A stretch of DNA of 64,000 nucleotides from Styela clava (GCF_964204865.1 NC_135260.1:15834478-15898477), one strand, 5' to 3'. Positions 33,501 through 59,000 are shown, counted from the first letter of the stretch. Program-made: numbers and translations. The notes: generated by a model not told the origin, from the letters alone.

Positions 33501-36500
33501 CTACATGAACATGATGTCATCACATTTGCTACTTTTCCATAGTATTCATATTCAAGACAATATTAATGTAAATTATTTGTGTTTCAGTATCTTCCAGACA
33601 TCAATATTCATCACTGTGATATACTCAATGTTCATAATGGTGAGTACTTATATAAATCTTTCTTACCTACTGTTCATGACTTAGATTTATTCTTATGTGT
33701 GAGGCTTATATTGTCTTGTATACACAAAACTTGAACTTTGGAATTAGGAACCTGTTATACTGCGATTTAAAGAGGACATTGACATTTTAGGTTCATAAAT
33801 GTCACTTACACTTCTCATGAATTGAGTTGATGTTATCTCGTAAAAAAAATTTTGGACTGTGAAGATGCAAGTTTTGTTAACATTTACAATCTATTTCTTC
33901 GCATAAAACAACATTTGCACCCTTAATAATAGACCTTAATAATTAGTGTGTGAGTAAAGTTGAATGGTACATAAACTAGTTATCTTAATTTTCAGGAATT
34001 GATTATTTTCCATTGCAAAAATCAACATATTTGAAGATTCAATCTTTTATCAATTCAATAAAATCTAATTTTCCTTCCATTCAACATGTGATGGCACTCT
34101 ATGCAGATAAACTGATTTGGTGAGTACAGAAAAAGTTGTATTTATATGATGAATAGTACAGTAGGATTGTAAAAAGGCAAACATGAGTTATTAAAACAGT
34201 TGTGCACTCGAAATGAGAGTCTTACTGTTTCTAGAAGTTTGTATCACAAAAAGGCCCCTGTTTAATGAAACAACCAGAAGCAAATCCTTATCAAATTAAT
34301 GCTTGGATTGCTAGTGAATATACCAATAGGTTTCAGTCCCTTTAAAAAACTTGATGTAAAATAGGCGATCAAAATTAGTTAACTCTATATTGGCAGACAT
34401 ACGTCTGGAGCGCCCAAATTTCAATACAACAACGCTCTTAATATCTTTTCAATCTTTATTTAAAGCACCATGAGATGTTTCTTTTTTCAAGTATAATTTT
34501 GTAAAAAATATTCTTTTTCATTTTAAGGAGTGATTTACAGAAGACTGATTCCAGATATTTATATTCATATCTTGTTAACAAACTCCTACCCACGTCATCA
34601 GAATTTGAAAATAGTGTTATAAGTAATTATTTAACAAGAGATGGAAGTTATGGAAGGTGAGAAATGAAGTTAATAAATCATGAAGAACCCAGAATTTTTT
34701 TTATACTCCTACAATAATGAAGAAAATTTACATCTGTTTGTGTATATTTGTACCTGAAAGTTTCAGTAATTCGAGATGCTTTGCACAAAATGTTCTCTCT
34801 CAAACAGGGGTGGGCAAGGTTTTGGACCAGGGGCCAAATATTTTGCCCACCTGGATTGGCGGGCCATGCGAGTGTGACGTAAAAAGTTACATTTTATAAA
34901 CAATATTTACAGTATTACAAAAACAAATGCGGAAAACAATATGTGCCTTGTGCCAAAACTAAATTTGATCGCAAACATCAAAAATTGGTTTTAGTTTGGT
35001 TGTGGGAGCATCAGGGGGGCCCAACGGGCCAGATTTGGCCCACAGGATTCAGTTTGCCCATGTCAGCACTAGACATGTTTCAAATGATCTGTGTTTTGTA
35101 GGTCACTCTGTAGATGATTAAATTTGCATTTTTTCGTAAAATTATCTTAGTTGAAAATTGTCATATTTTATGTTATTTAATTCTAAGCTGTGAAGTTTCA
35201 CGATTTGTTTATACTGACACACCCTAGAACCAAGTGATTGAACCATATGCTTCGTTGCATTGGTGAATTTTTTGAATCTGTCAAAATTGTATTTCAGATA
35301 CCGGTATGTGAACAATAAAAGAAATACGTTTCTTTCCAAACTAATATCAATTTTGTTCAGGTTTCTTGCTGGTGTTCGTTATTATGAACATTCAACAGAT
35401 AGACATACCACTACTGTTTATATCACTTCTACTTCCATGAAAGGGGAAAAATTATTCATGGTTACTTATCAGGTAGTATTGAATTTATTTATTATCAAAA
35501 ATCTTTAATATTCACTGCCAAGAAATATTTATATAAATAAAGCTAGGCTAACATTGTCTTTGTTTATTATTTACGACTTACGCCATTTGGATTTATTACT
35601 TCACAGTGTTTAATGGATTTTGCTGAGGTCATCTTTTTTCTGGTCATCAAATTTTGAGACATTTTTGTTTTTAGGTTCTTAATATCAGCATGACACTGTT
35701 ATTTGAAGGTATGTATACCTATTTATAATTATTATTCAATGATTATGTTCTTACAGTGGTTTTTGTTTGGAAAAATTATCCCACCATTTTTATACTTCCA
35801 GGTGAAACTCCACCATCTGTTGATACATTCAGAAAACTAGATTCTTTCATGGGAAAAGCATTGATTGATCTTTCTACTGAAATGGAAGTAGTCCCTATGA
35901 AAAATTCTTATGACAGGTACGCAGAAACTTTGAAATTGTGATAATATTCCTCTTCTTAGTCTTCAAACAAAACACTTAGGTTCATACTATTTTAAAATCT
36001 TAAAGCTTCTATTTCACCCTGGATTAAATAGGTGGGTAGCATGGGGTTTGAACTTGAGAACAGTGGTTCTCAAACGGAGGGCGCCCCACAAAGGTAGGGG
36101 CGTGGATACTTTTTGATGGGCCGTGAAGCTAATTAAAAATATTTGTTAGATTTGATCTTGCCTGCCTTATTTTGGATATTTATATATTTTTTATTATATA
36201 CACATATTTTTAACCTGTTTTTTGAATAAAACATACTTTCACCTTACTATCTGTTATTTGTAGGTTATTGTAAGCTACTGTATTTATTTTTGAGGTGGGG
36301 CGCGAGACTTGACAAATTCTAAAAAGGGGACGCGGCTTAAAAAGTTTGAGTACCACTGATCTAAAATCATCAACTCAGGGTCGAGAGAAATTTAATAAAG
36401 ACTTTTTTGTCTGTTGAAAATGATCCTTCCTGAACTTCTGATTGGAAATATTGACTTGAATTATCACCAATAAAAGTATGAAATTTCGAATCCCGCTTCG

Positions 36501-39776: not shown

Positions 39777-39857
39777 TTAATGTAGCCTTGTTAGTTCTTC
39801 AATAACTTTGATAATATCATCTGCCGTTGCATCTTTCATTATTCCACCTTCTTTTAT
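39777..39857 (-). CDS. DDB1: DNA damage-binding protein 1, terminal coding exon (last 26 codons + stop)
   Basis: Acceptor tttttcag, then IKEGGIMKDATADDIIKVIEELTRLH and stop TAA; aligns to the human DDB1 C-terminus ..[26 protein letters not shown]. Joins in phase 0 to the donor CAA|gtatga at 46854. Confidence 0.8.
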   Translation of the reverse strand: MKEGGIMKDATADDIIKVIEELTRLH

Positions 39858-42210
39858 CTGAAAAATCGAACAGATTTCAAATTATGATAAAATAGACAAT
39901 TTAAATAATATCTAACCCATAACAAAAAATAAGTAACGGAATAGCATAAATTTTGAACATTTCGTCAACATATTATAAATTTGGATCTTTTGGGTTTTAT
40001 GCTCCGGATTCATTGTGAACTTTGGCATCGTTTTTAATAACAGTGATTATTTGGGTCATAAACAGACCTGGGCTCTACAAAAATTGGGTCGATAGCCAGT
40101 AAAGAAAAATTTTCAACTGACTAAGTTCCGGGGTGAAATACAGCTTATTACACCATTGCATATTTCAATCCACATTTAGATATTATACATTCAAACGTCA
40201 AATAAAAATTCCCAATAAATTATCTCCTACGTCAGTGGTTCTTAAACTGGGTTCGATCGAACCCCTGGGGTTCGGTGGAGCTGTTCCAGGGGTTCGACGA
40301 AGGTGCTCTGAAACAGTTGCATATTATGAGACTTTTTTATCACCCTGCATACTAATTATGCAAAAATAACTATAGTTCATGATGACTAATTACTAATGAC
40401 TTGAACAATTGAATGGAACAATTAATTGGTGTTACCAGTGTTCACTATTAGCGCACTTTTTTGCGAAAATTGCGAAGCACTTTCGCAACTTTTTTTAGGG
40501 ACTGCGAAATAGCACTTTTTTCCGATTTTGAGGAGAAATAGCACTTTTTTCCGATTTTGAATGGAATAAAAATTCAAAGTTAACAAATATTTTCGAGTAT
40601 TAAAGTGACAAATAAGTAACATACTAGTACTTTTGTAACTAAATTTTGCATATCATAACGATATTTACCGGAATTCTAACCTATGAGATGCAGACATAGG
40701 AGATAAAGCTTTTGCATTAACTGCAAAATTCTTGTTTATAATATGATTATTATACAAGCACACCGAATCCGCTTCTCCCGCAAAAACGCTCCGCGTCTTT
40801 GAAACCAGATGTTGGAATACTACACAGTGCGTTTCTTTGAACGAGAGTGGTCATGTGACTATCAATGAGATCGTTGAATTCAAAATGACTATAAAAGTGT
40901 TAGTAAAGTGTTATAGTCACTTTGGATGTATTGTGACCAAGGTGCACGATTTTCAAAACCTTTAGCAGCATGTCACAGATTTGCAAAATCACCAAATTCA
41001 CAAAATACCATTGAGTGCCATTTTATTGTAATCACAATGTTGAAAGCATGTGGCATTTTGCGATATTTACACAACTCTTTCTCGTTGATATGCGAGTATG
41101 GGTGGGCAAAATTCAATATTTTATTGAATTGAATATTTTCAACGAGTACCGAATAACAAATATTTTTGGAACGTCCGTGGAAACATTAAAAAATCGGCAA
41201 CAAAGCCTTTTTACTGATTAATTCCGTTGTAATCGCTAATTGTTCTTGTCACCGATCGTTTTGGCGGCGATATCCAGGTTTTGTTAATCTATATTCCCGC
41301 CCTCTCTTTTTTACAAATATGAATTCTTGCGGGTCGGCGGACATCGAAGTTTTATATTTCGGGTTTACCCGTTTGTTCACATCGGCAACAGCTGTTGAAG
41401 ACATTGAGGACTCAAATTAACATTTGCGTTGGCTTTAATATTACCTATCAAGATTTGTAAATTTAGGGTCCCAATTTTATGCGAATGGTAATATTATTGT
41501 CGATACCATAATGCTGATATTTATTAAGACGATAATTAACTTTCTCATGTTTTTCTATGGTGATAAACTTCACAAATCTGAAATTGTGCCAATCCTGAAT
41601 GTTGATTTAAAATAGAGATTGAATAATTCGGCAATAAAGGCATTTCTGCGTGGTCATAAGACGAGATGACGTTAATGAACAGCACTTCTTTTACAGGATA
41701 TTTTACGTAAGCGACTTAATGCTAAAAAGATTGGACTCGAGTGCTTTTTTTCGAGTGCTCGAGTGCCTAATGGAGGTACGCTAATTGTAACTAATTTCCT
41801 CAAGTTTCAACATGTTTTCAGCAAAACAATATCCCGGCGATAATTATAGCTAAAATGTTACCGAGCAATTCACAATTTTATTTATGGAATTTGAAAATTC
41901 ACCAGTTTCTTGACGATATTGATAATGTCACGCCCTAATTATTAGTGCAAAAAATACTCCCCTTCTTCCGCGGCGGTTTGACGGGTTCTTTGTTCCAATC
42001 TTCAGAAATTTCTGACACGGGGGGATATAGAATACTGAATCCGGAGGGTTCAATCCCTGTCGACTTACTGGTGATTTTCCGTTTCGGAATGCGTGGAACA
42101 TTCTCTATTTTAAATTAAATGACGTTTCGCGGGCTAGAGTTCTACCCGAAAATGATGTGTACCAGACGTTAGTTAGACGATAGATAAAACATTAGATAAA
42201 TATATTTCAT

Positions 42211-42612
42211 GACGCCCCGTTTTCGAAAATACAAAATTATATCGCAAAAAATGCGTTTCGATACATTTGGAATGAACATTATTTACGGTTTTTTCAGATC
42301 ATATTTTACTCTTCATGACACCCGGTATCCGAAAATACAGTTGTATTGCGAAAAATGTGTTTTGTTACATTTAAAATAAAACATTTTTGCGATTAATTTA
42401 GATCATATTTTACTTTTCAGGACACCCGTTTTCGAAAATACAAGGTTATATCGCAAAATGTGTTTTGTTACATTTAAAACAAAACATTTTTGCGATTAAT
42501 TTAGATCAAATTTTACCTTTCACGGCAATCCGTTTCCGAAAATACAAAGTTATATCACAAAATGCGTTTTGTTACATTTATTTTGCATTCCCGATAAAAT
42601 ACATATTTTCCC
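42211..42612. repeat. Tandem array (about 3.8 copies of a roughly 104-bp unit) inside the hAT-B element
   Basis: Repeating gacacccgttttcgaaaatacaa.gttatatcgcaaaatgtgttttgttacatttaaaacaaaacatttttgcgattaatttagatcatattttacttttcag. A single related unit occurs at 3360-3470 in hAT-A. Confidence 0.6.
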
Positions 42613-44439
42613 TAATTAAAGTCGTCGATGAATCTGTTCCTGTCGGTCAAGCTTGACATACGTTTGGACGAGTGTGGGGCGGTTTTTTGGTCGACGATAA
42701 ATTAAAAAGTTGCCACACGTTATTTGTATAACGATAATAACTGAAAAATTAGATTTTATAATGGAAGTGAATTTGTCTTAAGATGGTATTTTACGATTCT
42801 TGCCCACAGAAAATAAACCCGCTGACAGGCTTGGTTATAATTGATATTCGTTTAATTTATTTTACACTATATTAATAAACGCGCCACACCAAGTGCGGCC
42901 ATATAAATTGCAGTCGCATCGGTATGGACTGTATGTTTTTGGCGCTCTCACATTAATTATAATTTTCAACAAAACAATACCCCGGCGGTCATTGAAGCTG
43001 AATTCGTTACCGAGTAATTCACGATTTTATTTACGGAATTTGCAATTTCAAGATCTCACTTGACGATTTTGATGGTGTCATGCCCTAATTATTACTGCTT
43101 CAATGCCTCAAAATACAACAAATGTAATCATTTTCGACGATAACAGGCGCAACAATTCGTAAACGAGCCGTTATAACGAAATTCGCGATTGATTTTACCT
43201 CTCTCTTGTTTACAATTTTAACATCCCGCCGGCCATGTATGGTCGAATAAAATGTTCACATATTCGAAACATGACTTGGCCAAAGGATGGAAGTGATCAC
43301 TAAAGAGCTAATAGAAAGTACATACGCGAGGGTATGATATTAATATCGAGAATATTTGTGAGCATATCACAGGACGGAAATATTTTGCACCCGGCTGTTT
43401 GTTGGCAGAACAACGATACGCTAAAGTTAATTGATCGAATACAGGGAAGTATTTATTTATCATCTCACTTGCGAACATCGAAGTTTGGGCGGAATTGTAC
43501 GATCATGTTGTCTTTCTTAAGTAATAACTTTTTCAATAAATGTTCATTTTACTTTTGGGTCTTTATTATATGTCCGGGTTTTCGTTAATTTTAAATTCGA
43601 AATTGTCCGAAATACTCCAACAGGTGTATAAGTACAATAATAATAGTACTTACCAAAGTACTTACCAGGGAAGTTTAATACACACGATGTGTTAATGGCG
43701 TCGTAACTGCCGTTTTTAATTTGATTGTTTTACATTCTGCTTAAAAAACAACGTCGTTTTGCAGTCATCTAATGTAAATCTCGCGACCAAATCTTTTTTG
43801 TTTTGTATGGCATCGTCTTGGCGACGAATTTATTGCCGACTGAATTTTAATTGTGTTTTAGGATAAGTTATTTTCTGTTTGTTGGTTTCTAAACTTTACA
43901 AACGTGGGTAGCAATTACTATTAATGTGAGATTTGTGCATATGAACGATTGAATATCGCGACTGGCTGTCCGATATCTGAGAATGCGTATATCAGCGTTC
44001 ATGTGGTCGAATAAAAATTATTTATCAAATGGATTTCGAGACACTCTCAAAATTATTTGGGATCCACTATCATATCATTCGTTTATTTTTTATATTCAGG
44101 TTTTTTTCAAGAATCACCCTCGTTATATTTCGTGTACCTTCGCAAAAGAAAACTCTTTGGTGTCATCGTTCCTATTAGTGTAATTGAAATATATGGAAAC
44201 CTCGCAAGTGGCGTTGTGATGCGAATATTTGATACTAGGTCAGCAGCATTACAAAGAGTGCTATTTATGAATGCTGAAAGTACATGGCATTACTAAACAT
44301 TTTGTCAATATATGATGTTTTCTGCCTGATTTAAACTAACTCCACGCAAACCAAGGCATGTCGACATTTAAAAATTACTTGTCTTTGGGTAAGCTCTGAA
44401 ATAGTATAATATAAATGTAAATGAGAAATTAGGTCACGC

Positions 44440-44630
44440 TAGCTCACGAAACGGGAGGATTTTCAAAGTGATCTTGTGTAATATTTCGGAGAAAAAAGTT
44501 TGAAAGGAAAGTAGGTCAACCTATCTCCTAAAACAGGGGAGTATCTTGCGTAATATTTCGGAGGGAAGGTAGGTTAACCTATCTTTTAAAACAGCGGGTG
44601 GCGACTTTCAAAGTGGTTCAAAATCACAAA
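44440..44630. repeat. Degenerate tandem repeat of about 60 bp inside hAT-B
   Basis: gtaggtcaacctatctcctaaaacaggggagtatcttgcgtaatatttcggagggaag followed by gtaggttaacctatcttttaaaacagcgggtgg...; then an inverted TTAGGTTTAGGG/CCTAACCCTAA pair and a G11 run at 44735-44745. Confidence 0.4.
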
Positions 44631-45952
44631 TTAATAATTATCAGATTAGGTTTAGGGATAAATCGAAAAGTTGAATTTCCAGCGCACCTAACCCTAATTA
44701 GTTGATTGCTATTTATATTTATTATATTTGGGGGGGGGGGATTATTTTGCACGGGATTTGTACAAATGATCCACCCTGTAACTAATATGGTTTCCAGCCT
44801 ACGTCGTTGTCTGTTAGATGGAAGGAGTAACAAATGTGAAAGCCTTTGCTGTTCACACGAGTAAGCAACTGACACCGTGATACATTGCATGAAAATTTTG
44901 TTCGCGGCAGGTGTTAGCAGATGTCCTTTTGTTGCCGATGAATTCGCTTGTTTTAATTAAACATGAATTCGCTTAAAGGGAACTCGGTTAACGGAAAGGC
45001 TTCTCTTTAATTCATAATATTAACCGGAGGAGCGCTTTTTCGATTATCTATGCCGTTTTAAATGGGTTATATGAAAGGCTAGAGCACCTAACTTGTTAAA
45101 ATCGGCAAAAGCACTTTCGCACTTTTTTTTTCCGACTGCGAAGCACTTTCGCACTCATAATTCGCTTAGAGTTAACACTGGGTGTTACCCTTATTCATAT
45201 TCTACCGTACTAATAAAATTCAACTCAATTTTACGGATAAATCGAAGATAGGCAGTAATTGTACATGAATGAATGCAAAATCATATCGTGTTTGAATTTC
45301 ACTAGGTGATAAATTTGCGACAAGGAATAGTTTATCGCAGAGCTTTACCCGAAATTATTATGATCCATTCAGGACAACCTCGATATGGCGCCGAATTAAT
45401 CCTATGTCTATTTCTGTAAAATAAAACAATTGGCAAACGATTTTATTCGCATTTCAGCGCAGTTTAAAGTTTGAGAACAAATTGCTTGAACTACCAACGT
45501 TTATGGGGTATATTATCATCTTTCGGATTTTCAAAGTTATTTTTTATCAGTTTTCGCCTGTTCACCCGCATAACTTATACAACAAAAACCATCTGCTCAT
45601 TCTGCCGCCAACGCCATTGTGACAAAACAATGGTTATCCCCACATGGTTATTGATATCTAAGGTTTCATCACAATGTTCATATTCTATAACCTTGCAAGA
45701 ATTAGCTTCCGCTTTATGACGTTACGGTTTGGCTTCTAATTTCAACCGTTCAGTACAATATGGGGTTCGGCGGGAGCTTGCAGAATAGCGCAGGGGTTCG
45801 GCAGGCTCACAAAGATTAAGAACCACTGTCCTACGTACATTGAAAAGAAAAAATACGGCAAACAAAAATTCACGTAAGTCGGCCAGCAAACAACAGAAGT
45901 TCCAAAAAATGGGAACTGCAAACTTCCAATATTTGATTCAATTACATGTCTA

Positions 45953-46643
45953 TGGTGGCCCATCGTTGTCACGTGTAAAATTTAAAAAAAAAATGAAAAA
46001 ATAAAATGAAAAAGCGAAAATAAAAAAATAGTTGTGAAAAAACATGAAAATAATTGAAAAAAAAAAAAAAAAAAAAAAAATAAATTAAAAAAAAAAATTG
46101 ACAAATAAAACAAACAAAAAAATTAAAAAAAAAATTAAAATTAAAAAAAAAAATTAAAAAAAAAAAAAATTTGAAAAAAAAATTGGATAAAAAGAAAATA
46201 AAAAGGTTGACAACGATGGTCCGCCTCGTGGCCCATCGTTGTCACGCGTTTTTATTTTTAGAAAATTTGATGCTGCTTGGGACCAACGTTGTCAGACTTA
46301 ATCCTACACACTTAATCCTACACGCACAAATGTGTTTCCTGGGTTTCCTGGGTTTTCCAAGCAAAAGCAAAGTTTCTAAAAATAAAAACGCGTGACAACG
46401 ATGGGCCACGAGGCGGACCATCGTTGTCAACCTTTTTATTTTCTTTTTATTCAATTTTTTTTTTTTTCATTTTTTTTTTTTTTTTTTTTTTTTATTTATT
46501 TATTTTTTTTTAATTTTTATTTTTTTTTTTCATTTTTTTTTTAATTATTTTTATGTTTTTTTACAAAAAATTTTTTATTATCGGTTTTTATTTTATTTTT
46601 TATTTTTATTTTCAATTTTACGCGTGACAACGATGGGCCACCA
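45953..46643. repeat. About 690-bp foldback palindrome with A-rich and T-rich arms, inside the last DDB1 intron
   Basis: 22-mer cores GGTGGCCCATCGTTGTCACGYG at 45953-45975 and 46211-46250, mirrored as CGCGTGACAACGATGGGCCACC at 46381-46430 and 46621-46643. A-rich arm 45976-46210, T-rich arm 46431-46620, about 130 bp unique centre at 46251-46380. The mirror-image ORFs 46171-46395(+) and 46242-46454(-) are an artefact of the symmetry. Confidence 0.8.
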
Positions 46644-46853
46644 TACATGTCCAACATTCTAAAACCAAGCAGAATGCTTGGCAACCCCCATATCAATTTG
46701 GTAAGTCATGACTATATAAAATTCAATTGTGTAGTTAGAGAAAAGGTACATTAGACTCGAAGCCATTTGAAAAATTTCACAGTAAATACAAACAGCTGTG
46801 GAAAAAAAAATCCCTTTAATGGAACCTGTCATATAAAAAAGTATAAATCATAC

Positions 46854-49800
46854 TTGTATGCCTTGGGCGACAGAGTCCATCTTTTCCCTAGGCAGATCCA
46901 AGAAATTTTCTATAAGGTCCCCATCTATAAAGCCTTTGTGATCACTTGTAACTCTGTCATTGGTAAATGATCGCCAAAAACTGTGATCAATCTTCCCCAC
47001 TCCTTTGATTAATTTTTCCAATTTTTTTTGGACTTCACCCAGTAAATGGAATATTTCTGTGTTAAAGGTAGTAATGACGCCTATACTTCCATGTACAGTT
47101 CCAAACAATATACTGCCTTGCGTGGGAGTTGAAGTCTCGCCGAGATGTTGCATTACCAGTGTTCCATGTTGAAATACATTTACCATATCCCCAAGATGAA
47201 ATGAGCCGGTTCCAATTAGTTTTGATGTATCATCATCGTTAGCAGTTGAACTATCTTTTTGACAAACAAAAAGATTGAAGCTGTTGTCAGCACCTATGAA
47301 GTTATCATCATCAATGATTTCAACTGCAGTCATCCAGTTTGGCTTATAATCTTTTGCTATTTCATCTAAATTACCTTCGATGGCTTTGTATGAAAGAACG
47401 CTCAGTGATCGCATAAGGTCGCCTACAAGTACAAAGTCTCCTTTTGTTTTTAAAAATAGAGCAATGATGTTACCTTGATGACTGCAATCAACAGTCAGAT
47501 CTTTTTCCTCGGTCCATTGATACACAATGACTGAACCATTAATACTTGCAATAATTTTTTCATTGAAATTTGATAATGTATAAACGGCTCCTCGTACCTC
47601 TTTCTCAGAAATTTGAGATAATTTTCCATCAAATACTTGAAATACAAGAATTCGGCCCTGCTTAGGTTCTGGCTCTTCTGGATATACGAAAGCAGTACCA
47701 ACAACAAAATAAGATTCTGCTCCAATATTGCAAGATATTATGCTGCAAGGCCACTCAAATGGAGCAAACTGATGCGCATGGTGAACCTCGAATGTATGTT
47801 GATCAATAATCAACAGGTTACCAATCTCTGTATCATCTCCGTACATGTTGGCGTCCATGCTTGGCTGACGATATTTTGTGCTTGTATCTTTTGTGATACT
47901 GTTGGCCTGCAAGCTTGCACATAATCGTGTTGTTGGTTTTGAAGCTTCCAATCCTATAGTATCATAGCGAAGAGTGGTCACACCGAAACACTGGCTCTTT
48001 TCCTGGTATGCTATTCTCCTTGGAGATTCATACAATGGCACAGTGCGAATATGCAGTTTCTGGATTTCATCAATTTTTCCAATTAGTAAGACATTATCAT
48101 TAGCCAGTGCTAAACTGTCAGGATATCCTTCAGAATCTAGAGCACACATGTAATTAACTTCACGTAAATTAACATTAGAAAACACAAGCTTGTGATTGGA
48201 ACTGTAGATTACCGTTGGCCTGTCGGAACATGAAAATACATTGAGTGACCCGCCAGAAAGAAAAGTGTGAAGCTCTGTAGGCTGGGTACCAAGAGGGACT
48301 TTCTTTCGTTCGCCCAAACCACACAAATCCTCATTAATCGTGAAGTAAAACAACATGCCATCTCCGAGAGTGACAAGAAGATAGTCAATTCCTTCAAATT
48401 TAACCATCAAAACAGATCTAGGGATAATTTCACCACCTAACATTTGTGAATGTTTTTCTTCTAATCCAGGCATAGCAAGAAGATGAACACTGTTATCATT
48501 CCACAAACCAACTGCACATAATTGAGCTTTTGCTGTTTCATCTGTTGGATTCAACACCAGAGGATTGACATTTAAGCAAGCGACTTCTTCTGGCATCACC
48601 CTCTCGGAGCGCAGAATCAATTCGCTTGATCCCACTTCTAAATGATAAAGTTGACTCCCAACTGCAACGACAATCTGTGAATAATTACATGTTGCATTGC
48701 TAATATTTCCCCTTGGTGGGGACCACTCTGCAACCAACTTTTTCATCTTCCTTGAAATCAATCTAATTCCTTCTTCAGTTATTTGTACAACTTGATCATT
48801 CAAGACATTCGAGCATAAAAATGTCTGTTGTTCATCGTCAAAACCACCAAATTCAGATTCCTCTATTTCTTCACCACTGAGACGCAAAATTCTAGAATGG
48901 CCGACAAAAGACAAAATCAGTGTGTCAAACTTAGATGAATCAGAGAACAGTCGAAGCGGCCATAGTCCTTTTATACCAGGCAAGTCAATGCTTGCATGCT
49001 CCTGGATTCCAATACCATTACGAATGATTCTCAGTGATCCTTCTTTAAATGCCCCAGAACAAGTAACTAGTTGCCCCTGACCTTGTCTCTCCAGATCTAC
49101 AACACACATGTCGACAATAGGGCCCAAATTTGTATAAGTATCGAGTATTGAAATATAAGAGGATGATGAATCTCCTTCTCCACTTGTTGGAGTCGTTTCA
49201 AGACGAATTAGCTGAGAATCTCCAAGCCTTGATCCAATATAAACCACACCATTGTCAAGATAAGAAAGGCATTCGGGTATGTTCACTTCACCCATCAATT
49301 CGATATGCAAATCTTTGACGGAAACATTTTCGTCTATTTTCTCTTCAGTCTCAACATGGAGCATAAAAAGTCTTCCAGCCATATCACCAAGAAGATAACG
49401 ACAGTTGTCCACACGAGCAAAGCAAGATACAATATTTTGCTTGATCATTGGAGGTGCAATTAATTTAGCCATTCCATCGCCGCTATGATACATTATAGAT
49501 TCCTGCCCCACAACCAGAGCTCCATTTAACGGGGCAGGAACAGGGATAATAATAGAAGCTTCTGTGTCTACATTTTCTTGTTGCCATGACCCAAGTTTCA
49601 CTTCCTTGTCTCGTATATTGATTTCATAGGTTTTAATATGCCGCCCATGTGTATTGTGGTATATGATAGCCACGGTTGGAACATTGTATCCATGAAGAAA
49701 TTGGGCATCAATCACACTCAATTCATCCATTCTAACATTGAAAGGGCGCAGTTCTTTGCTGGTTGGATCATAAGGCAAAATTTTAAAGACACCTTCATAC

Positions 49801-50204
49801 AATCGAAGACCAATTATTTTGCATGTCGGATCTATAAATCCAAGTATACCAGTTTCAGGTGGCCGACCTACAGGATCAGTTACCAATCCACTTGCTTTTG
49901 TTTTGACTTGACAGCCTTGTTCACCGGCGCAATATTCCAAAATCGACGCATTATATCGTTCAGTTAGTACAAACAATAGATCTTTTGGTTCACCTGGAGG
50001 TCTAAACAACTTCAACACAGCAATTCTTCCATAAATATTCATTTCTGTAATTGGACGAAGTCCTTCACTGGTGACTGTATATATTTCCAAACGTGTGCTT
50101 TTAGCAATAAGTAAATTCATGTCATCAGGACTTGTGAAGTTACCAGTTATACAAAAGTGAACTGCACTCGGCTTGTGAGCTGTGACGACATAGTTGAACG
50201 ACAT
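46854..50204 (-). CDS. DDB1: DNA damage-binding protein 1 (CUL4 adaptor; three WD40 beta-propellers), main exon coding residues 1-1117
   Basis: A continuous 1118-codon minus-strand ORF. N-terminus [42 protein letters not shown] against human [42 protein letters not shown]. Colinear over the whole length (..[29 protein letters not shown]). The ORF's own last codon and stop are intronic: a donor gtatga follows CAA at 46854-46856. Confidence 0.95.
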
Positions 50205-50366
50205 GGCTATTTAGTTTTTTAGTTTAGTACAGTTACTGTATGGAGAAAAACAATAAATACTTCCTATTACATTATCACAGTGCAAAATTTTATCAGATAG
50301 ATTGTCAAATAGATGAAAAATAAAGTTAAATTGAAATTTTCTTCTCCAATCATAATACGTTTGCTA

Positions 50367-51314: not shown

Positions 51315-52539
51315 TAATGTCTGCTGTATTTTACAATATTTGGCAGTAGAACCTTATTTCACCCGGGCCTGATATATATACTTTATATTAATATATCTAC
51401 TAAATCTCTAGATTTGAATATAGAAGTGACAATAGACGATGTGACGACAATCCAATAATGTGTTTTTGTCTTGTCAACATGCAACTATAAGCTACTGTAA
51501 TCTTGCCTTTATTCGTCTCAGAAACGAAAGTATTGTATCAGCAAGTAATGCACTCCGCTTCGCTATTAGTTTGATCTTTTCTGAAGCATGGATACTTCTG
51601 CTTTAGTTCTTGGGTGTAAAAACGTTCTTGGGTAAAAAAGGTTTTTACTGAGTCCACTGACGTAACTTTCTGCCAAAATCGAAACTTCACCGAATTGCTA
51701 AATACAAATGAAATGACGTAAAAATAATTGCAGAATAACACAATTTTTCGCGATGAACGACTATGCAAAACAGGTATGCATTTATCCTAGGGCAGTGCTT
51801 CTTATCTCTTTTGCGGGTCTGCCGAACCTCTCCGCTGTTGTGCAAGCTCCTGTCGAAGCCCATTCAACGGTTGAAACCAGGATCGCAATCAGAACTTCAA
51901 AGAACGGTAGCTAATTTTCTGCAAGGTTCGCGTCCAAAACCTCCAACTGCATCCGGAGCGTTGTTTTTCACAGATTTTTGCAGAAATCGACATAGCCTAC
52001 ATTATGAACTAGTGCCATTTTAATACGAGTTTTAATGAAACGTACTGAATTCAAGACTGCAAGATGTAACGGTCATTGACATGACCAGTAAAACATAGGG
52101 TGGCTTACCCACTTTGCGGCCAAGACCTATTTGCGACCATCAACTTCAACGATTAATTTAATGCCGAAAAAATTAACGAACAGAGATGATATTTCTCGCG
52201 CGTTATCGTCCACTTATCCCTCGTAGCTCTGCGAAATTACACTAAAATGCGGCCACAAACAAAAAAGTTACGACCGAAAACCCGACCGAAGAAAATAAAC
52301 GGACCATTTTTCCATGTCGCCAAATACCCATTGTCCCTTTGAAAAAGCTTATATAAGAGATGAAAAGATGAAACTTGGCAGGTGGGTAGAGTTCTGTTTC
52401 TTTTAACCATCTTTAAAGTTTCGCATTTCTACATTTAAAGGAGGGGGAGTAGGGGGACGCATTTCCAATACGTCGATAATAGCATTGTCGACCAATTTGC
52501 GACCACCGTGTTTTTGTTTGTTTGATTGCTGTAATGCGG

Positions 52540-52795
52540 TGCTTTGTTTGTTGCATCGACAGGACTTGATGGTGGACTGGTGGAGGAAGCCGTAAACAAC
52601 CAGCGGTTACGTGAAACACCCTACAGCCCTACGGCGGCGAGGAGTCCAGCAATCCTCTCACACATGATCATCCCCGAATGGGATTCTAACCTCCGATCCC
52701 ACGAAGGGTAATCAGAGATGCAGTGGCGAGCGTATTCCTAACGCTTAGCACTGATGCGCCACACCGCCATACACTTCTCTAGCATGTGATATCTA
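52540..52795 (-). mobile_element. tRNA-derived SINE, copy 3 (reverse orientation)
   Basis: ggtggaggaagccgtaaacaaccagcggttacgtgaaacaccctac...gaatgggattctaacctccgatcccacgaagggtaatcagagatgcagtggcgagcgtattcctaacgcttagcactgatg is the reverse complement of the SINE body plus tRNA-like head. Confidence 0.6.
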
Positions 52796-53654
52796 CAAAA
52801 TCCCACATTCAGACATTACGGTAACAGATTAATGCAAAATGGATTTTTCTGTTTGCAGTATTACTAATTACGTGGCAGTGTGTCGCATGGCAGCATGTAG
52901 TTACAGTTTCCTCCACAATCTGACAATCAAGTCCATGCATGTGAAAACTGCGGCGTCTTTTGCCATTGTTTTATGGCGCTATTAATTAATCAGTATTAAC
53001 GGTATATTCACAGAGTCATGTACCAGATTTTAGTTTATCATGCGGAATTACCGTATATCTATTTAAACCTGAATCCTAACCTCAAATCCATCAAAACTGT
53101 ATTCAGAGGAAAAATGTTCCAACGGTACCCAATACTTGCACGGATCACGTGACTTTGTTTACGCCGCCACTTTGGACGGCAAAAAAAAAACGTCCAGACT
53201 CCAGCATTTCGTTGGTGGTGGGTGATGAAGTGCCGTTACTGATTTCTTAAATTTTGTTAAGGTATCAATGCTCTAAGTCTCCCGTTGCATGCATGTGTAT
53301 ATTTTCTAAAATTCCAAAAAGCTTCGCGGCACACCTGATAATCTCTTGCGGCACACAGTTTGAGAAACACTGCTACTGTATAATAGCAGTGTTACCTTTC
53401 CCCGAGCATCGACTTCCTTCTTTAATTCGTGACATTGGCCAATCAGCAAAATGCAAAATATTACGTAACATTGCTCCCTTTTCGCATTTAACATTATCTC
53501 GTTTTCGCGCTTTAGTTTTTTGTTGTCTTATGGTTTGGAAATCCCGCCATGGTTTTGCGGCAGCTGTAGACTCCACAAAGTACTCGAAACTGCACTTGTC
53601 TCGTCCAGTACCGGTACTGGTACCATTTCATGTCGGTTGAGGGATTAGTTAGTT

Positions 53655-53935
53655 ATTTGTTTTCGGAAGCTTGGACTTGATGGTGGAGGAAGCCGTAACT
53701 GACCAGCGGTTACGTGAACCATCCCACTCGCACATAACTATCGACGCATGGAATTCAAACCTGCGAACCCACGCAGAGTAATCAGAGGTGCGGTGGCGAG
53801 CGTATTTCTAACGCTCAGCACGATGGGATTTGAACATGCGAACCCACGCAGAGTAATCAGAGGTGCGGTGGCGAGCGTATTCCTAACGCTTAGCACGATG
53901 AGCCACGCCGCCGCGCTTCTTCTTTGACCAACTGA
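53655..53935 (-). mobile_element. tRNA-derived SINE, copy 4 (reverse orientation, tRNA-like head tandemly duplicated), left arm of an inverted SINE pair
   Basis: ggtggaggaagccgtaactgaccagcggttacgtgaacc... then two successive head units (gaacccacgcagagtaatcagaggtgcggtggcgagcgtat.tctaacgct.agcacgatg). Confidence 0.6.
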
Positions 53936-54039
53936 AACTCTTGATTTATCAGGTGTCTTGTATTTGAGTATTCTATCAAGCTTGTCAGCATAACACATGA
54001 TCATGATATCTTGCAAACGTTTTGGCCCACGCAGTCTCC

Positions 54040-54295
54040 AGTGCAGATTGGCTAATCGTGCTAAGCGTGAGGACCTCTGATTACTCTGCGTAGGTTCGTA
54101 GGTTCGATTTCCATGCAAGGATGGTTATGTGCAAGAGGATTGCTGAACTTCCCGCCGTCGTAGGGTGGTTCACGTAACCGCTGATCGGTTACTGCTTCCT
54201 CTACCATCAAATCCATGCTTCCGAAAACAAATATCTAATCCCATACCCGACATGGAATGGTAACCGAAAGAGATCCTAATCCTACATTTACGTCG
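54040..54295 (+). mobile_element. tRNA-derived SINE, copy 5 (forward), right arm of the inverted SINE pair
   Basis: gctaatcgtgctaagcgtgaggacctctgattactctgcgtaggttcg...ggtggttcacgtaaccgctgatcggttactgcttcctctaccatcaaatccatgcttccgaaaacaaatatctaatcccatacccgacatggaatggtaaccg. Separated from copy 4 by about 105 bp. Confidence 0.6.
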
Positions 54296-55539: not shown

Positions 55540-56000
55540 TTTAAAGCATTTTGTATTAGCTCTTTAGTGATCCCTTCCGTCCTTAGCCAAGTAATGTTTC
55601 GAATATATAAACATTTTACTCGACCATGCATGGCCGTTAAGCCAAGAGTTAGAACGTAATATCAATCGAGAATTTCGTTGTAACAATGCACACTGATTCG
55701 TTCATGACTTGTTGCGTCTATTATCGTTGAAAATGATTACAATTGTTAAATTTTGAAGCATTTGGGCAGTAATAATTAAGCATCAAGGCATGACATAATC
55801 AAAATCATTAGGTGAAGTGCTGAATTTGCAAATTCCGTAAAGAATATTGAGCGTTACTCAGTAAGTATTTTAGATATAATAACCATCGGGGTGTTGTTTT
55901 GTTGAAAAAAAATGTTAAAACTTGAAGGAATTAGGTATAGTTAGCGTCTGACCCTCTATTAGGCACAAAAGCCTAGGAATGCCTTTATTGCCAATTTATT
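55540..56000 (-). mobile_element. Fragment (inverted) of the internal module of the hAT-B family, no termini
   Basis: The reverse complement of 55540-55900 aligns to hAT-B 42990-43320 (gttaccgagtaattcacgattttatttacggaatttgcaa...ggtgtcatgccctaattattactgc...ggccatgtatggtcga.taaaatgtt.a.atattcgaaacat.acttggc.aag..ggaag.gatcactaaagagctaata.aaa). 55860-56000 aligns to hAT-B 41620-41860. No TIR was found nearby. Confidence 0.5.
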
Positions 56001-59000
56001 TAATCGCTATTTTAAAACAACATTCAGGATTCACACAATCGTAAGTTCGCTAGGTTTATCTATCTAATGCTAAAATAACACGAACACCATAGAAAAGCAT
56101 GAGAAACTCAATTATCATTTTAATAAATATCTGCATTTCGGTTACCGTTCACTTTAAACAGGCACGGTTAATTTACAACCGATGATAAGAAAGATCAAAT
56201 CCAAGGCAGAGGATAAAACTCAGAATAAAATTAATTTGGTTTTGACATCAGCCCTTAATGTCTTCAACAGCTGTCGCTGATGTGAAAGCAAGGGTATACT
56301 AGAAAATGAAAACTTCGATATCCGGCGGCCCCCTTATTCTTGCAAAAAACGAGAAAGAGCAGGAATATAGAATACCAACTTTAGGATATCGCCGCCGAAA
56401 CGATCGCGGTGACAAAGACAATCAGCGATTATGATGAAATTAACCCTCAACAAGAAAAACAAAACGCTTTATTGCCGACTTTATATTAATTTCCAAATTG
56501 AGTATCACCCCCCGACGTTCTGGATCCCTGCTATATATAAAAAAAATATATATATATATATATTTATCATTCGACTGTTCGGTATTTGGTAAAAATATTC
56601 AAATTATTCGATCCGTAAAAAGAGACGATTTTGCCCACCCTAGACTAATAGCCATTTATTTTGGCTTTGATTTCTAATAAGTTTGTCAAAGCGGGTCGTA
56701 ATCGTGGAGGATGCAATGTGCAGTAGCTGCTTGAGATTATCGCCAAATATTTCGGGACTATTTTTGATTACTGGAACAAAATTAAAATGCTCTAGAAATT
56801 AATAAAATCATTGAGTTATTTGATTTATACATAATATTCAGAAATGCGACAAAAACTGAAAACCCCCGAAAGCAAGCCAATAATGATTACAGTCATGGTT
56901 AAAATCTTTCCAAGTGAAAAGTGTCGGAGTGGCCGCGAAAATGCTTACAGTTGCGTCACTATTGCATCTTGTATAGATTAGTCAACGCTACGCAAATAAG
57001 CACGGCGGAATCCATTCGACTAACTAATACACTTAACACTTCCACATTTTAATTTCAAGTCAATGATTAGTTTTCAATTAAAATTTTTCTTTGAAAAAGA
57101 ATTCATTTTCAAGGCATTAACAAGAGCCGCAGGAAAGGTTTGTAGAATCACTGATCTAGACTGTCCTTCAGCAACTTGACACTGTAACTACTGGACGGAC
57201 TCCCGCAATGCCAGCAAAATGTCATACCAGAGTGTTAACTTGAATCGTAAAATGAAGATCAGAATTATTATATCACGCATAGATAGGGTTACCATATTTT
57301 TGTCGATTTTCAAATCGAGACGCCTCGAAAGACAACGACCCATTAGCTGTGATTTTGTAACTGACGTTGACGATTGTAATTGACGTTAACCGTTACCGGT
57401 ACAAATAATTCGAATTTAGACTAATCAGTATTAGTTTTACATGTGATACGTCTGCCCTCAATGGGAATCAGAGGGAAACGAACGCATTCACCTTCAGTAA
57501 GAAGGCTAGCGTTCTTGTTACAACAGTAACAAGAACATGTTTGTGTATTATGCTGGAAAAGCGGGACTTTTGGCTGACTTATCGGTACGGCGGGACAAAA
57601 CGCTGAAAAGCGGGACGTATGGTAAGCCTACGCATAGACATTGTCATGTATTGCCATGATGTATTATTTTACGTTTTATTTTATAAAAATACAATAAAAA
57701 AAAAGATCAGAATTTCAAAATCACGTTATATAATCTAGTTCGAATATTGGCAATTTTTTAAAAATAAATAAAAATGTATAAAACTTCTCCCATAGAAGTG
57801 AATTCACGAATTAAGGTAGCAATGCATAATTTATGGTTAAATATCGGGCCGCGTGGGAACCAGAAATAAGAAAAGCAATATTCTTCTAGTCATATTTTCA
57901 ATATCAACTTATTGTTACAATAAGTTTTCAATTTTTATAAAATTTCCAATATTCGAAGTTCGAAAAGGCTCAGCAGGTTTCGCTCAAGAGACGTGAGATT
58001 TTATTATTTTATAATCAAGAGGGCAAACTGAAGTTTTTTACGAGACTCGAACCAAAGCCTTTTGAATTTGGGGTATTCTGACAGCTAATATATATGTCTT
58101 TGTTTGTCAAAATAACATACATATGTAAAGAGAAAGGAAGAAAATAGAAAGCAAACTCCTCCCCAAAAACGACAAAATTTTTCCCTGTAGCATTGCCAGA
58201 TTTATAGTAGTATGACCGACCGCTCCTGCCTGTATAGCGCCTTGCCCTGAGCCCCTTATAATAAAGGGCAAAATATCAACAGCTTTATGATGATTGGAGA
58301 CCCAGACTACACGGAATGGGTTATGCTGTTCTATGCATGCACTGTATGCTTTAGGGAAAAGGCTTTAATTTTAATCTCATTCGTTTCAAATAATTTATTC
58401 AACATATTTATGACTGTTCAGAACAAAATATTTAGATTGATTTAAAATTATTTATATATATAATATTTGATATTATTATACATTTTTAATTTTGGGAATA
58501 ATTTAAATTTAGGAATTTCTTTAAATTAGTTCCAATTTCTCTGTTGAATATGACCAAATTTGAACAGATTGCAAAATTCACAGGTGATTGATTCATAGTG
58601 TTTTTACTGAATTTTATTGTTTTCATGACGGTGATTAAAATCAGTATAAAATCGGGATGATTTGAGACAAAAAATAGCCTAGTATGCGTCATTTCACTTG
58701 TAAGTAAAGTAAACATGTTACATCCATCAATAGGCAGGCACAGAGATATTCTAACCTAGATTTGTAAAGTTTGCTGTCATTTCTAATAATGCAACGATAT
58801 CATTTGAAGATATTGGTATGTATTTAATCCACTACCACGACCTTTGCAACCTGATCTCGGGCCGGCTTATTTTTTTCAAGCGTCCTATTCTTCGTTCATC
58901 AGTTTTCTAGTATCGAGTATAAATATTCAATAATCACAGGCTTCCTATCAGACATAATGTTTGATTGTTCAATATTTTCACCGTTCAATGTACACAGGGC

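Follow-up and report, generated by a model that had tools for sequence, protein, structure and literature searches.

Probable en-bloc loss of 25 consecutive introns from DDB1 in the ascidian Styela clava, with the last intron spared

In the ascidian Styela clava, the DNA-repair gene DDB1 retains just the last of its 26 ancestral introns, the other 25 having been lost. This structure is probably the outcome of an ancient cDNA-mediated loss of introns 1–25 en bloc, in which the last intron was spared and later grew by the acquisition of transposable elements (TEs). Such a loss would have involved a cDNA intermediate, a single event and conversion of the gene in situ rather than retroposition. 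The features upon which this proposal is based, all located within one window (the whole stretch of DNA analysed, 64,000 nucleotides in length), are listed in Table 1.

Table 1. Features of the DDB1 locus in the 64-kb window of S. clava and domains of the DDB1 product.
Feature	Position	Strand	Remarks
DDB1 coding exon 1	46854..50204	-	1117 codons; equals Ciona/Clavelina exons 1–26; 25 ancestral intron positions inside
5' splice site GTATGA	46848..46853	-	also an in-frame Val-stop directly after Gln1117
Sole retained intron	39858..46853	-	6996 nt, phase 0, U2-type
Terminal coding exon	39777..39857	-	26 codons IKEGGIMKDATADDIIKVIEELTRLH + TAA; acceptor ttcgatttttcag
Non-autonomous hAT-like element (putative)	40233-45828 (with TSDs 40225..45836)	.	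5596 bp, TIR + TSD; nested repeats inside
Dispersed repeat, two pieces (41178-41647 + 42963-43317)	41178..43317	.	blastn 66–75% identity, E = 1e-44, 2e-67
Tandem array, 104-bp unit, 3.5 copies	42216..42580	.	TRF score 450, 82% matches; inside the hAT-like element
Foldback (inverted-repeat) element	45977..46620	.	A-rich arm + T-rich arm around a unique core
PF10433	residues 15-349 of DDB1 product		Pfam
PF23726	residues 395-711 of DDB1 product		Pfam
PF03178	residues 797-1103 of DDB1 product		Pfam

Translation of the long exon gave a stop-free reading frame from the initiator Met to Gln1117, which confirms the claim of an earlier note on this DNA that an uninterrupted exon ends here at a GTATGA donor. 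Residues 1–1116 of its protein are colinear with residues 1–1112 of human DDB1 (1524 bits), and the alignments with SF3B3 and CPSF1 were much weaker. Three beta-propeller domains of the RSE1/DDB1/CPSF1 type were found in order in the product, with Pfam scores far over the gathering cut-offs. The spliced product of 1143 aa, also claimed in that note, is identical (100%) to the RefSeq protein XP_039272966.2 (DDB1-like, Styela clava), and the two-exon gene model is already annotated in RefSeq. A protein search yielded a single cluster of S. clava DDB1 among the matches listed. Assembly into the CUL4-RBX1-DCAF ubiquitin ligase is a biochemical property of the DDB1 family. Judged by its sequence, this locus represents the functional DDB1 of the species, and apparently its only one.

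The placement of the DDB1 C-terminus some 7 kb away, behind a tttttcag acceptor and in phase 0, was likewise borne out. When the window was searched with four orthologous DDB1 C-termini as queries, the short terminal exon was the unique match (E = 2e-11 to 2e-6; next best E > 0.2), and the phase is 0 at both exon edges, with 6996 nt of intron between them. The 26 residues that it encodes can be aligned with all orthologs compared, each of which ends with this helix; the final seven (EELTRLH) are unchanged across five species, and the length of 81 nt is also found in Ciona, Clavelina and a relative of Styela represented by contig L006. Compared with another relative (L001), the exon shows 10 synonymous and three nonsynonymous codon changes, a pattern which indicates that it is under purifying selection.

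The use of the splice junction is based upon the RefSeq model and upon cDNA contigs of other species. The sequences of the relatives are Logan contigs (SRR32906204/208/212, SRR10746996/97), and in three of them (L001, L002, and L005, whose proteins match that of Styela at 91, 77, and 73% of aa, respectively) both exons are joined exactly, so that the 39857/46854 junction, which the earlier note proposed to check, has its counterpart in these relatives. Contigs L001 and L005 start with a Nextera adapter 16–17 nt before the ATG, an indication that they are cDNA. Read-through of the GTATGA in unspliced RNA would produce a protein short of its last 26 residues, and one could suppose that the mRNA ends soon past this Val-stop to encode a protein of 1118 aa, the distal exon being a relic or part of another transcript. 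An in-frame stop does lie directly past the donor, an ATTAAA is found about 45 nt downstream, and a 7-kb intron filled with repeats makes for a demanding splice. However, the RefSeq model includes the distal exon, its frame, phase, length, and stop are kept in five species as expected under purifying selection, the junction is present in cDNA of three relatives and all orthologs end in this C-terminal helix; an unused exon is therefore very improbable.

The ancestral state of the gene was derived from four outgroups, viz. Ciona, Clavelina, Branchiostoma (amphioxus), and Hippocampus (fish), where DDB1 has 27, 27, 26, and 27 coding exons, respectively; 15 intron positions are common to all four of them and 31 to at least two. 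The expectation that DDB1 genes elsewhere have many introns thus holds, with 26–27 coding exons in the orthologs. In Styela, none of the 25 successive positions that precede the last intron is occupied. At 24 of these 25 Ciona intron sites the proteins of Styela and L006 align without a gap, and the one exception falls within a variable loop that carries an insertion in Ciona. The Styela protein is about 60–65% identical to the canonical DDB1 proteins of chordates (human, mouse, fish, amphioxus, and Ciona) and shares with them the same three propellers, the C-terminal helix and the last intron, but the 26–27 coding exons of these genes are reduced to two and their AT-AC minor intron is absent. 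The latter, a conserved U12-type intron of phase 2 in the penultimate position, was the one intron that splice mapping limited to GT/GC-AG sites had missed in Ciona, amphioxus, and fish. Canonical chordate DDB1 is a minor-intron-containing gene (PMC6239176; PMC12956336), and many minor introns have been lost in tunicates (PMC10639083). The minor spliceosome is no longer needed for DDB1 of Styela, and the gene illustrates concretely how a conserved U12 intron can vanish, namely by being swept out with its U2-type neighbours instead of being converted, which bears on the paucity of minor introns in tunicates.

The time of this loss is indicated by the deepest-branching of the relatives (L006/L009, 71% identity), in which an exon of 1122 codons, a 73-nt GT-AG intron and an exon of 26 codons make up the gene. 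The L006 contig is genomic, because the adjoining VMA21 gene carries an unspliced intron of 72 nt; on this ground, and because intergenic DNA is present, the idea that L006 is a partly spliced RNA was rejected. Its donor is located at the same codon (CAG/GTAATA). In a neighbor-joining (NJ) tree, L006 was placed as the sister of the remaining four members in 100/100 bootstraps, and the stem branch of the clade was long; from this tree, the clade that holds Styela and its four relatives is probably Stolidobranchia. As L006 has the same two-exon structure, the intron loss is old: it occurred before the divergence of the Styela clade and is common to its two deepest branches. The earlier note had counted a single-exon structure in relatives against a cDNA origin. 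The same structure as in Styela was indeed found in L006, and the loss is neither specific for Styela nor recent; it is nevertheless derived at the level of the clade, since Ciona and Clavelina keep 27 exons, and the cDNA mechanism is still the best explanation, moved back in time.

The wholesale and precise removal of introns (25 consecutive, 24 of 25 sites ungapped) is a signature of recombination with a spliced cDNA, and by its contiguity and precision it supports the proposal of the earlier note that near-complete loss came about in this manner. Alternatively, 25 separate losses could have accumulated over a long time, each by a genomic deletion or by cDNA repair of a single intron, and the last intron would have remained by chance or through selection. 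Although the long stem branch of the clade and the high intron turnover known in tunicates (PMC4122922; PMC10639083) would allow for this, the 25 introns had all gone by the time of the deepest split in the clade, 24 of the 25 junctions are exact, unlike those left by most genomic deletions, and Ciona and Clavelina kept all 26 introns through a comparable time. No member of the clade has an intermediate structure with part of the introns, and we regard separate losses as quite improbable; nor was an intermediate seen that would favour one event over several.

About 26 coding introns, with the U12-type AT-AC intron next to the last, were present in the ancestor of chordates and in the tunicate lineage toward Ciona and Clavelina. 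Under the cDNA-mediated mechanism, introns 1–25 would then have been erased precisely in the stem of the Styela clade, most likely by a single event or a very small number of them, in which the gene underwent homologous recombination or gene conversion with a reverse-transcribed spliced mRNA, and the last intron would have survived where the conversion tract, or the cDNA itself, stopped upstream of it. The present gene should give a pre-mRNA of at least 10.4 kb with one U2-type splicing event that joins coding exons of 3351 and 81 nt. Loss via cDNA presupposes that the gene is expressed in the germline and that reverse transcriptase is available; DDB1 is broadly expressed in other animals. That the template was a partially processed transcript, as suggested earlier, is somewhat disfavoured. 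U12-type introns splice slowly, and the intron expected to be removed last (U12, penultimate) is among those lost, whereas the last intron, which was retained, is of the U2 type. The lone survivor is the 3'-terminal intron, and this pattern also counts against the classical poly(A)-primed model, which predicts a 3' bias with the 3'-most intron lost first. However, in a study of adjacent-intron loss via spliced mRNA the 3'-terminal intron was usually spared, and internal crossover, self-primed reverse transcription (RT) and recombination with a wild-type allele were put forward to explain this (PMC2395259). The frequent escape of 3'-terminal introns from cDNA-mediated loss is a standing problem, for which the Styela gene is a data point.

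Another origin that has to be considered is that of a semi-processed retrogene, i.e., a cDNA retaining the last intron that inserted elsewhere and gained a promoter, with the 27-exon parent being lost afterward. A gene of this kind is rodent preproinsulin I (Ins1), where one of two parental introns persists; like DDB1 of Styela, it has lost most ancestral introns and kept one at the ancestral position, but its parent Ins2 persists and hallmarks of retroposition are present, whereas no parent copy of the Styela gene was found among the matches listed. A single S. clava DDB1 among these matches is what would be expected once the parent was lost. The neighbours of the gene are also unlike those in Ciona and Clavelina: in both of these, an ankyrin-repeat gene lies upstream of DDB1, and it is absent from the Styela window and from L006; in addition, the neighbouring SLC37A3-like gene has one coding exon in Styela vs. 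12 in Ciona, and its intronless state fits an active history of retroposition. No match to neighbour genes from Ciona, Clavelina or L006 was found in the 64-kb window by tblastn or tblastx, and microsynteny provides no support for in-situ conversion. However, microsynteny is generally scrambled in tunicates, and because Styela and L006 also share no neighbours, synteny is uninformative for conversion vs. retroposition. A remnant of poly(A) or a flanking target duplication is not to be expected, as the event is too old. A retrogene calls for three steps (intron retention in the template, promoter capture and loss of the parent) vs. one for in-situ conversion, and the intron expected to persist in a partly processed RNA, the slow U12 one, is gone. 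We therefore consider a retrogene unlikely, though it deserves some weight.

In terms of conversion by cDNA, the closest known cases are from Cryptococcus, where loss of adjacent introns by the RT model has given rise to "extraordinarily large exons" (PMC2395259; for a test of the RT model, see PMC3652778). The exact removal of neighbouring introns, the single very large exon and the sparing of the 3'-terminal intron, reported for most of the adjacent-loss events there, are alike in both. The Styela case differs in its scale, as the gene concerned is an essential single-copy one of a metazoan and lost 25 consecutive introns over 3.35 kb of coding sequence, in that the losses include a U12-type intron, and in being ancient and fixed in a clade rather than polymorphic or recent. 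DDB1 of Styela genuinely exemplifies a kind of intron loss that is already known. Its value lies in being a clean and unusually large erasure, with 25 introns lost and one kept in an essential single-copy animal gene, that can be dated to the stem branch of one tunicate clade, with outgroups to fix the ancestral state. Otherwise it changes little: the RefSeq model exists, the class of mechanism is textbook knowledge, and TE-driven growth of single introns has already been described for S. clava. It is conceivable, if on balance doubtful, that DDB1 reflects an episode which affected the whole genome in the stolidobranch stem lineage, in which spliced cDNAs overwrote long parts of many genes (the SLC37A3-like gene also), erased U12 introns en bloc and systematically spared 3'-terminal introns. 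If so, genome-wide overwriting by cDNA could explain part of the loss of minor introns in tunicates, and systematic sparing of the 3' end would suggest that the cDNA was internally primed or 3'-truncated, or that selection keeps at least one splicing event in each gene.

The alignment column and phase of the retained intron are those of the last intron in Ciona, Clavelina, Hippocampus, and L006, and in Branchiostoma the last intron is offset by five columns owing to an indel; these positions show that the Styela intron is the ortholog of the final intron in DDB1 of other chordates. Its counterparts are much shorter (73 nt in L006, 286 in Clavelina, 493 in Ciona, 476 in Branchiostoma and 1276 in Hippocampus). 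A search with Rfam at gathering thresholds found no structured RNA in the intron or the window, and a structured RNA was rejected as the cause of retention on this basis and because the orthologous L006 intron has just 73 nt. Introners have been reported in S. clava (PMC12130899) and the intron consists mostly of transposon sequence, which might suggest that the gene became fully intronless and regained an intron at the ancestral site by coincidence. Such a regain is scarcely credible, as position and phase are identical to those in Ciona, Clavelina, and fish, the L006 intron is plain and devoid of TEs, and the hAT-like element described below, which has its own target-site duplication (TSD) inside the intron, must have entered a pre-existing one. 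Following cDNA-mediated loss, the intron would have grown later in the Styela lineage from about 0.1–0.7 kb to 7 kb, by way of this 5.6-kb element and a foldback. S. clava genes tend toward one large TE-expanded intron (PMC7540406).

The earlier note had described this intron as hosting a 4.7-kb hAT element, a foldback palindrome and MITEs. A hAT-like element, a foldback and other repeats are present, and the element is a genuine one bounded by terminal inverted repeats (TIRs) and a TSD, but its size is 5596 bp and it has no transposase. The repeat pairs about 4.7 kb apart (I6, D7, D8) were rejected, as they lack a TSD and clean termini; the pair bounded by a TSD is 5.6 kb apart. Its TIRs are perfect and 13 bp long (CAGTGGTTCTTAA), and this sequence occurs without mismatch exactly twice in the 64 kb, at both ends of the element and in inverted orientation. 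The duplication (TCCTACGT; 40225-40232 and 45829-45836) is identical at 8/8 positions and lies inside the intron, at distances of 368 nt to the acceptor and 1017 nt to the donor. No Pfam domain, and hence no DDE or hAT dimerisation domain of a transposase, was detected in six frames with stops masked, nor did the element give a tblastn match to the hAT ORFs of the window (24064-25682), where its only hAT transposase remnant (24.0–25.7 kb) lies outside DDB1. Because no transposase was found in it, the element is at best a non-autonomous member of the hAT group. It resembles non-autonomous hAT elements and MITEs in its 8-bp duplication, short TIR starting with CAG and lack of a transposase, but at 5.6 kb it is unusually long, and it probably grew through nested insertions. 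The two pieces of the dispersed repeat within it are parted by about 1.3 kb of other repeats, and a contiguous copy is located at 55550-56495 in opposite orientation. The foldback, about 230 nt downstream of the donor along transcription, has arms of 206 nt (46075-46280 and 46357-46562) that are 82% complementary. Lastly, the right end of the hAT-like element recurs at 51793-51928, and a 298-bp element with the same TIR is present at 36061-36358.

The DDB1 gene of Styela contains two coding exons, whose boundaries are in phase 0 on both sides and which are separated by an interval of 6996 nt; the long exon is followed by GTATGA, a consensus-like donor that also reads as a Val-stop in frame. 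The long exon could be aligned end-to-end with residues 1–1112 of human DDB1 (1524 bits), whereas the paralogs SF3B3 and CPSF1 gave far lower scores against it, and the three RSE1/DDB1/CPSF1 propeller domains are present in the spliced protein. Apart from the small exon, nothing in the 64 kb window matched a DDB1 C-terminus significantly. The conceptual splice product is identical in 1143 of 1143 residues to the RefSeq entry XP_039272966.2 ('DNA damage-binding protein 1-like [Styela clava]'), which falls into the cluster (90% identity) that contains the top match, and the two-coding-exon model, exactly as described in the earlier note, is already present in RefSeq. The coordinates and phases proposed there are all correct, as is the product length of 1143 aa. 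The finding is thus real and its description accurate, and it provides a new and tidy case of a known type of event, of modest importance, in a gene whose model had been annotated before. The nearest named relatives by DDB1 protein are tunicates, viz. Ciona (63%), Phallusia (63%) and Clavelina (61%). The acceptor-like site ahead of the start codon may serve in trans-splicing or in the removal of a 5'-UTR intron; in L006, a contig from a relative with a closer ortholog, the sequence ttttttttag is present ~29 nt ahead of the DDB1 ATG.

Features of the Styela clava window (window-relative coordinates)
Feature	Position	Strand	Description
Pentaxin/laminin-G-like domain ORF	14012-14545	plus	177 aa; Pfam E = 5e-18
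Decayed hAT transposase gene	24064-25682	minus	three overlapping frame-shifted ORFs; DUF4371 and hAT C-terminal dimerisation domain
Sugar phosphate exchanger 3-like (MFS transporter)	28305-29876	plus	complete 523-aa single-exon ORF
MITE-like element	36061-36358		298 bp; TIRs CAGTGGTTCTCAAAC / GTTTGAGTACCACTG
DDB1 terminal coding exon	39857..39780	minus	encodes IKEGGIMKDATADDIIKVIEELTRLH, then TAA; directly after ttcgatttttcag
hAT-like element in DDB1 intron	40233-45828		5596 bp, non-autonomous
Tandem array	inside hAT-like element		104-bp unit
Dispersed repeat	inside hAT-like element		two pieces; contiguous copy at 55550-56495
Foldback	45977-46620		206-nt arms, 82% complementary
DDB1 long coding exon	50204..46854	minus	1117 codons, uninterrupted reading frame
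Acceptor-like site	50236-50260	minus	tattgtttttctccatacag; 31 nt upstream of DDB1 start codon
Copy of right end of hAT-like element	51793-51928		
GC-richer block	52000-54200	both	GC 0.435; ORFs; internal duplication (..SVRNTLATAPLITLRGFA.. x2)

The ancestral structure of this gene was examined by placing four annotated DDB1 proteins on their own genomic loci via exact spliced matching. The numbers of coding exons thus identified were 27 for Ciona intestinalis (L003), Clavelina lepadiformis (L004) and Hippocampus comes (L008) and 26 for Branchiostoma floridae (L007), and when the proteins were aligned together, all four species were found to share 15 intron positions and at least two of them 31. 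The last coding exon, which is 81 nt long in Ciona and Clavelina and 84 nt in amphioxus and the fish, is preceded in all four species by a phase 0 intron. As the Styela intron is identical in alignment column and phase to the last intron of Ciona, Clavelina and Hippocampus (that of amphioxus lies 5 columns away, owing to an indel), the surviving intron is the ancestral last intron, and hence Styela lacks the 25 introns that precede it in an unbroken series. The Styela sequence is gap-free in the alignment at 24 of the 25 Ciona intron sites, and the remaining site falls within a variable loop where Ciona bears an insertion. That the present Styela intron was regained is excluded by its ancestral position and phase, and also by L006, which carries a plain 73-nt intron at this place. 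The penultimate intron is of the U12-type (AT-AC, ATATCCTT donor, phase 2) in Ciona (intron 25), Branchiostoma (intron 24) and Hippocampus (intron 25); neither Styela nor L006 has this intron, which is conserved across fish, amphioxus and Ciona. Its presence in these lineages agrees with mammalian DDB1 being a known minor-intron gene (PMC6239176; PMC12956336). In the deposited Clavelina model (L004, about 9893-10367, donor at 9969) 27 residues (..YDFLSSVESQLAKIIKSVGNIDHES) are missing, which the genomic DNA does encode, followed by the ATATCCTT donor; a GT-AG intron was apparently forced on the model where an AT-AC intron belongs.

Closer orthologs were found in Logan contigs from four relatives. 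Three of these contigs (L001, L002, and L005; 91, 77, and 73% amino acid identity to Styela, respectively) contain a full ORF of 1141–1143 aa in which the two Styela exons are joined exactly. L001 and L005 open with a Nextera adapter, 16–17 nt ahead of the ATG, and L001 closes with one as well; as these look like transcript ends rather than genomic coverage, the three contigs are taken as cDNA evidence for the exon junction in three related species. In L006 and L009 (71% identity), the called ORF meets CAG/GTAATA (slash marking the exon end) and so ends right past the conserved ..DLQ; 73 nt further on, after ctctcatag, are 26 codons (MKENGMERDLTAEDLIKIVEELTRLH) and a stop. The L006 contig extends into a VMA21 gene retaining an unspliced 72-nt GT-AG intron, which indicates that it is colinear with genomic DNA. 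This VMA21 gene (4266-4634 of L006) is on the strand of DDB1 and begins ~420 nt past its stop codon, a very compact arrangement, unlike the Styela locus, and the two genes possibly form an operon.

In a NJ tree, L006 branched as the sister of ((Styela, L001), (L002, L005)), with 100/100 bootstraps at every relevant node, and the Styela-L006 clade was sister to Ciona, Clavelina, and Phallusia. Both of the deepest branches of this clade have the giant exon with the last intron, and the sister group lacks this structure, which therefore dates from the clade's stem. The clade is probably the Stolidobranchia (the taxon name being inferred), and the structure has been stable since its origin. Thus, the view that the loss is a feature of Styela clava itself was not borne out; it is ancient, as L006 has the same structure. 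The small exon differs between Styela and L001 by 10 synonymous and 3 nonsynonymous codon changes, and all five species share the same seven residues at its end (EELTRLH).

Serial independent losses of the 25 introns are unlikely, as every one of the 25 was complete by the time the clade first split, and Ciona and Clavelina have not lost a single one. The precise loss of many neighboring introns in a row is the recognized signature of recombination with spliced cDNA (PMC3652778; PMC2395259), and the best explanation for Styela DDB1 is that its introns would have been erased in this manner on the clade stem. The classical, poly(A)-primed version of this process predicts that the 3'-terminal intron is also lost, but Styela kept it. 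However, sparing of this intron is the rule rather than the exception in the best-studied data set, for which the proposed explanations are that the crossover fell upstream of the last intron, that reverse transcription was self-primed or primed internally, or that the loss allele later recombined with a wild-type allele (PMC2395259). The earlier note had likewise proposed a rebuilding by cDNA, made from a partially processed transcript; the cDNA part is the best reading, whereas the latter detail is unproven. A transcript still containing the last intron is a possible source. Nevertheless, the U12-type penultimate intron should be the slowest to be spliced and would then be the one expected to remain, and it was lost. 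Retroposition of DDB1 followed by loss of the parent gene is a further alternative, to which we prefer conversion in situ on grounds of parsimony. An ankyrin-repeat gene adjoins DDB1 upstream on the same strand in Ciona (L003, 1557-2687) and Clavelina (L004, 1-2523); no counterpart was found in L006 or in the 14 kb that precede DDB1 in the Styela window, and no DDB1 neighbors common to these two were found.

The sugar phosphate exchanger 3-like ORF, which is 99% identical to a S. clava entry of that name (UniRef/nr), has a Ciona counterpart (L010) with 12 coding exons, and it is the second intron-loss gene of the window, here with all coding introns removed. DDB1 is therefore not the only gene of the S. 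clava genome to have undergone wholesale intron loss, which makes the DDB1 loss less surprising and a lineage-wide episode of intron loss, a possibility at present, more plausible.

The surviving intron was described in the earlier note as filled with transposons, including a 4.7-kb hAT element; the hAT-like element and the foldback are real, but the former is 5596 bp long. Its terminal inverted repeats, CAGTGGTTCTTAA at 40233 and its exact inverse at 45816-45828, have no other perfect copy in the window, and the same octamer, TCCTACGT, flanks both; the whole is a bona fide cut-and-paste element. The intron gave no Pfam matches in any frame, and no similarity was found to the hAT transposase remnants of the window, which lie in a GC-richer block at 24–28 kb (GC 0.42–0.43) and show no sequence relationship to the hAT-like element of the intron. 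The MITE-like element has nearly the same terminus, and further near-matches to the inverted repeat occur at 51793, 53360, and 54839. If the hAT-like element were taken out together with its target duplication, the intron would come to 1392 nt, and if the foldback were taken out as well, to ~750 nt, which falls within the range of other species (73–1276 nt). The S. clava genome contains 46.7% repeats and shows a tendency to one large intron per gene (PMC7540406), which the DDB1 intron matches.

The ORFs of the GC-richer block at 52000-54200 gave no Pfam matches, and this block is probably a further repeat family. The pentaxin/laminin-G-like ORF probably represents a single exon of a larger gene.
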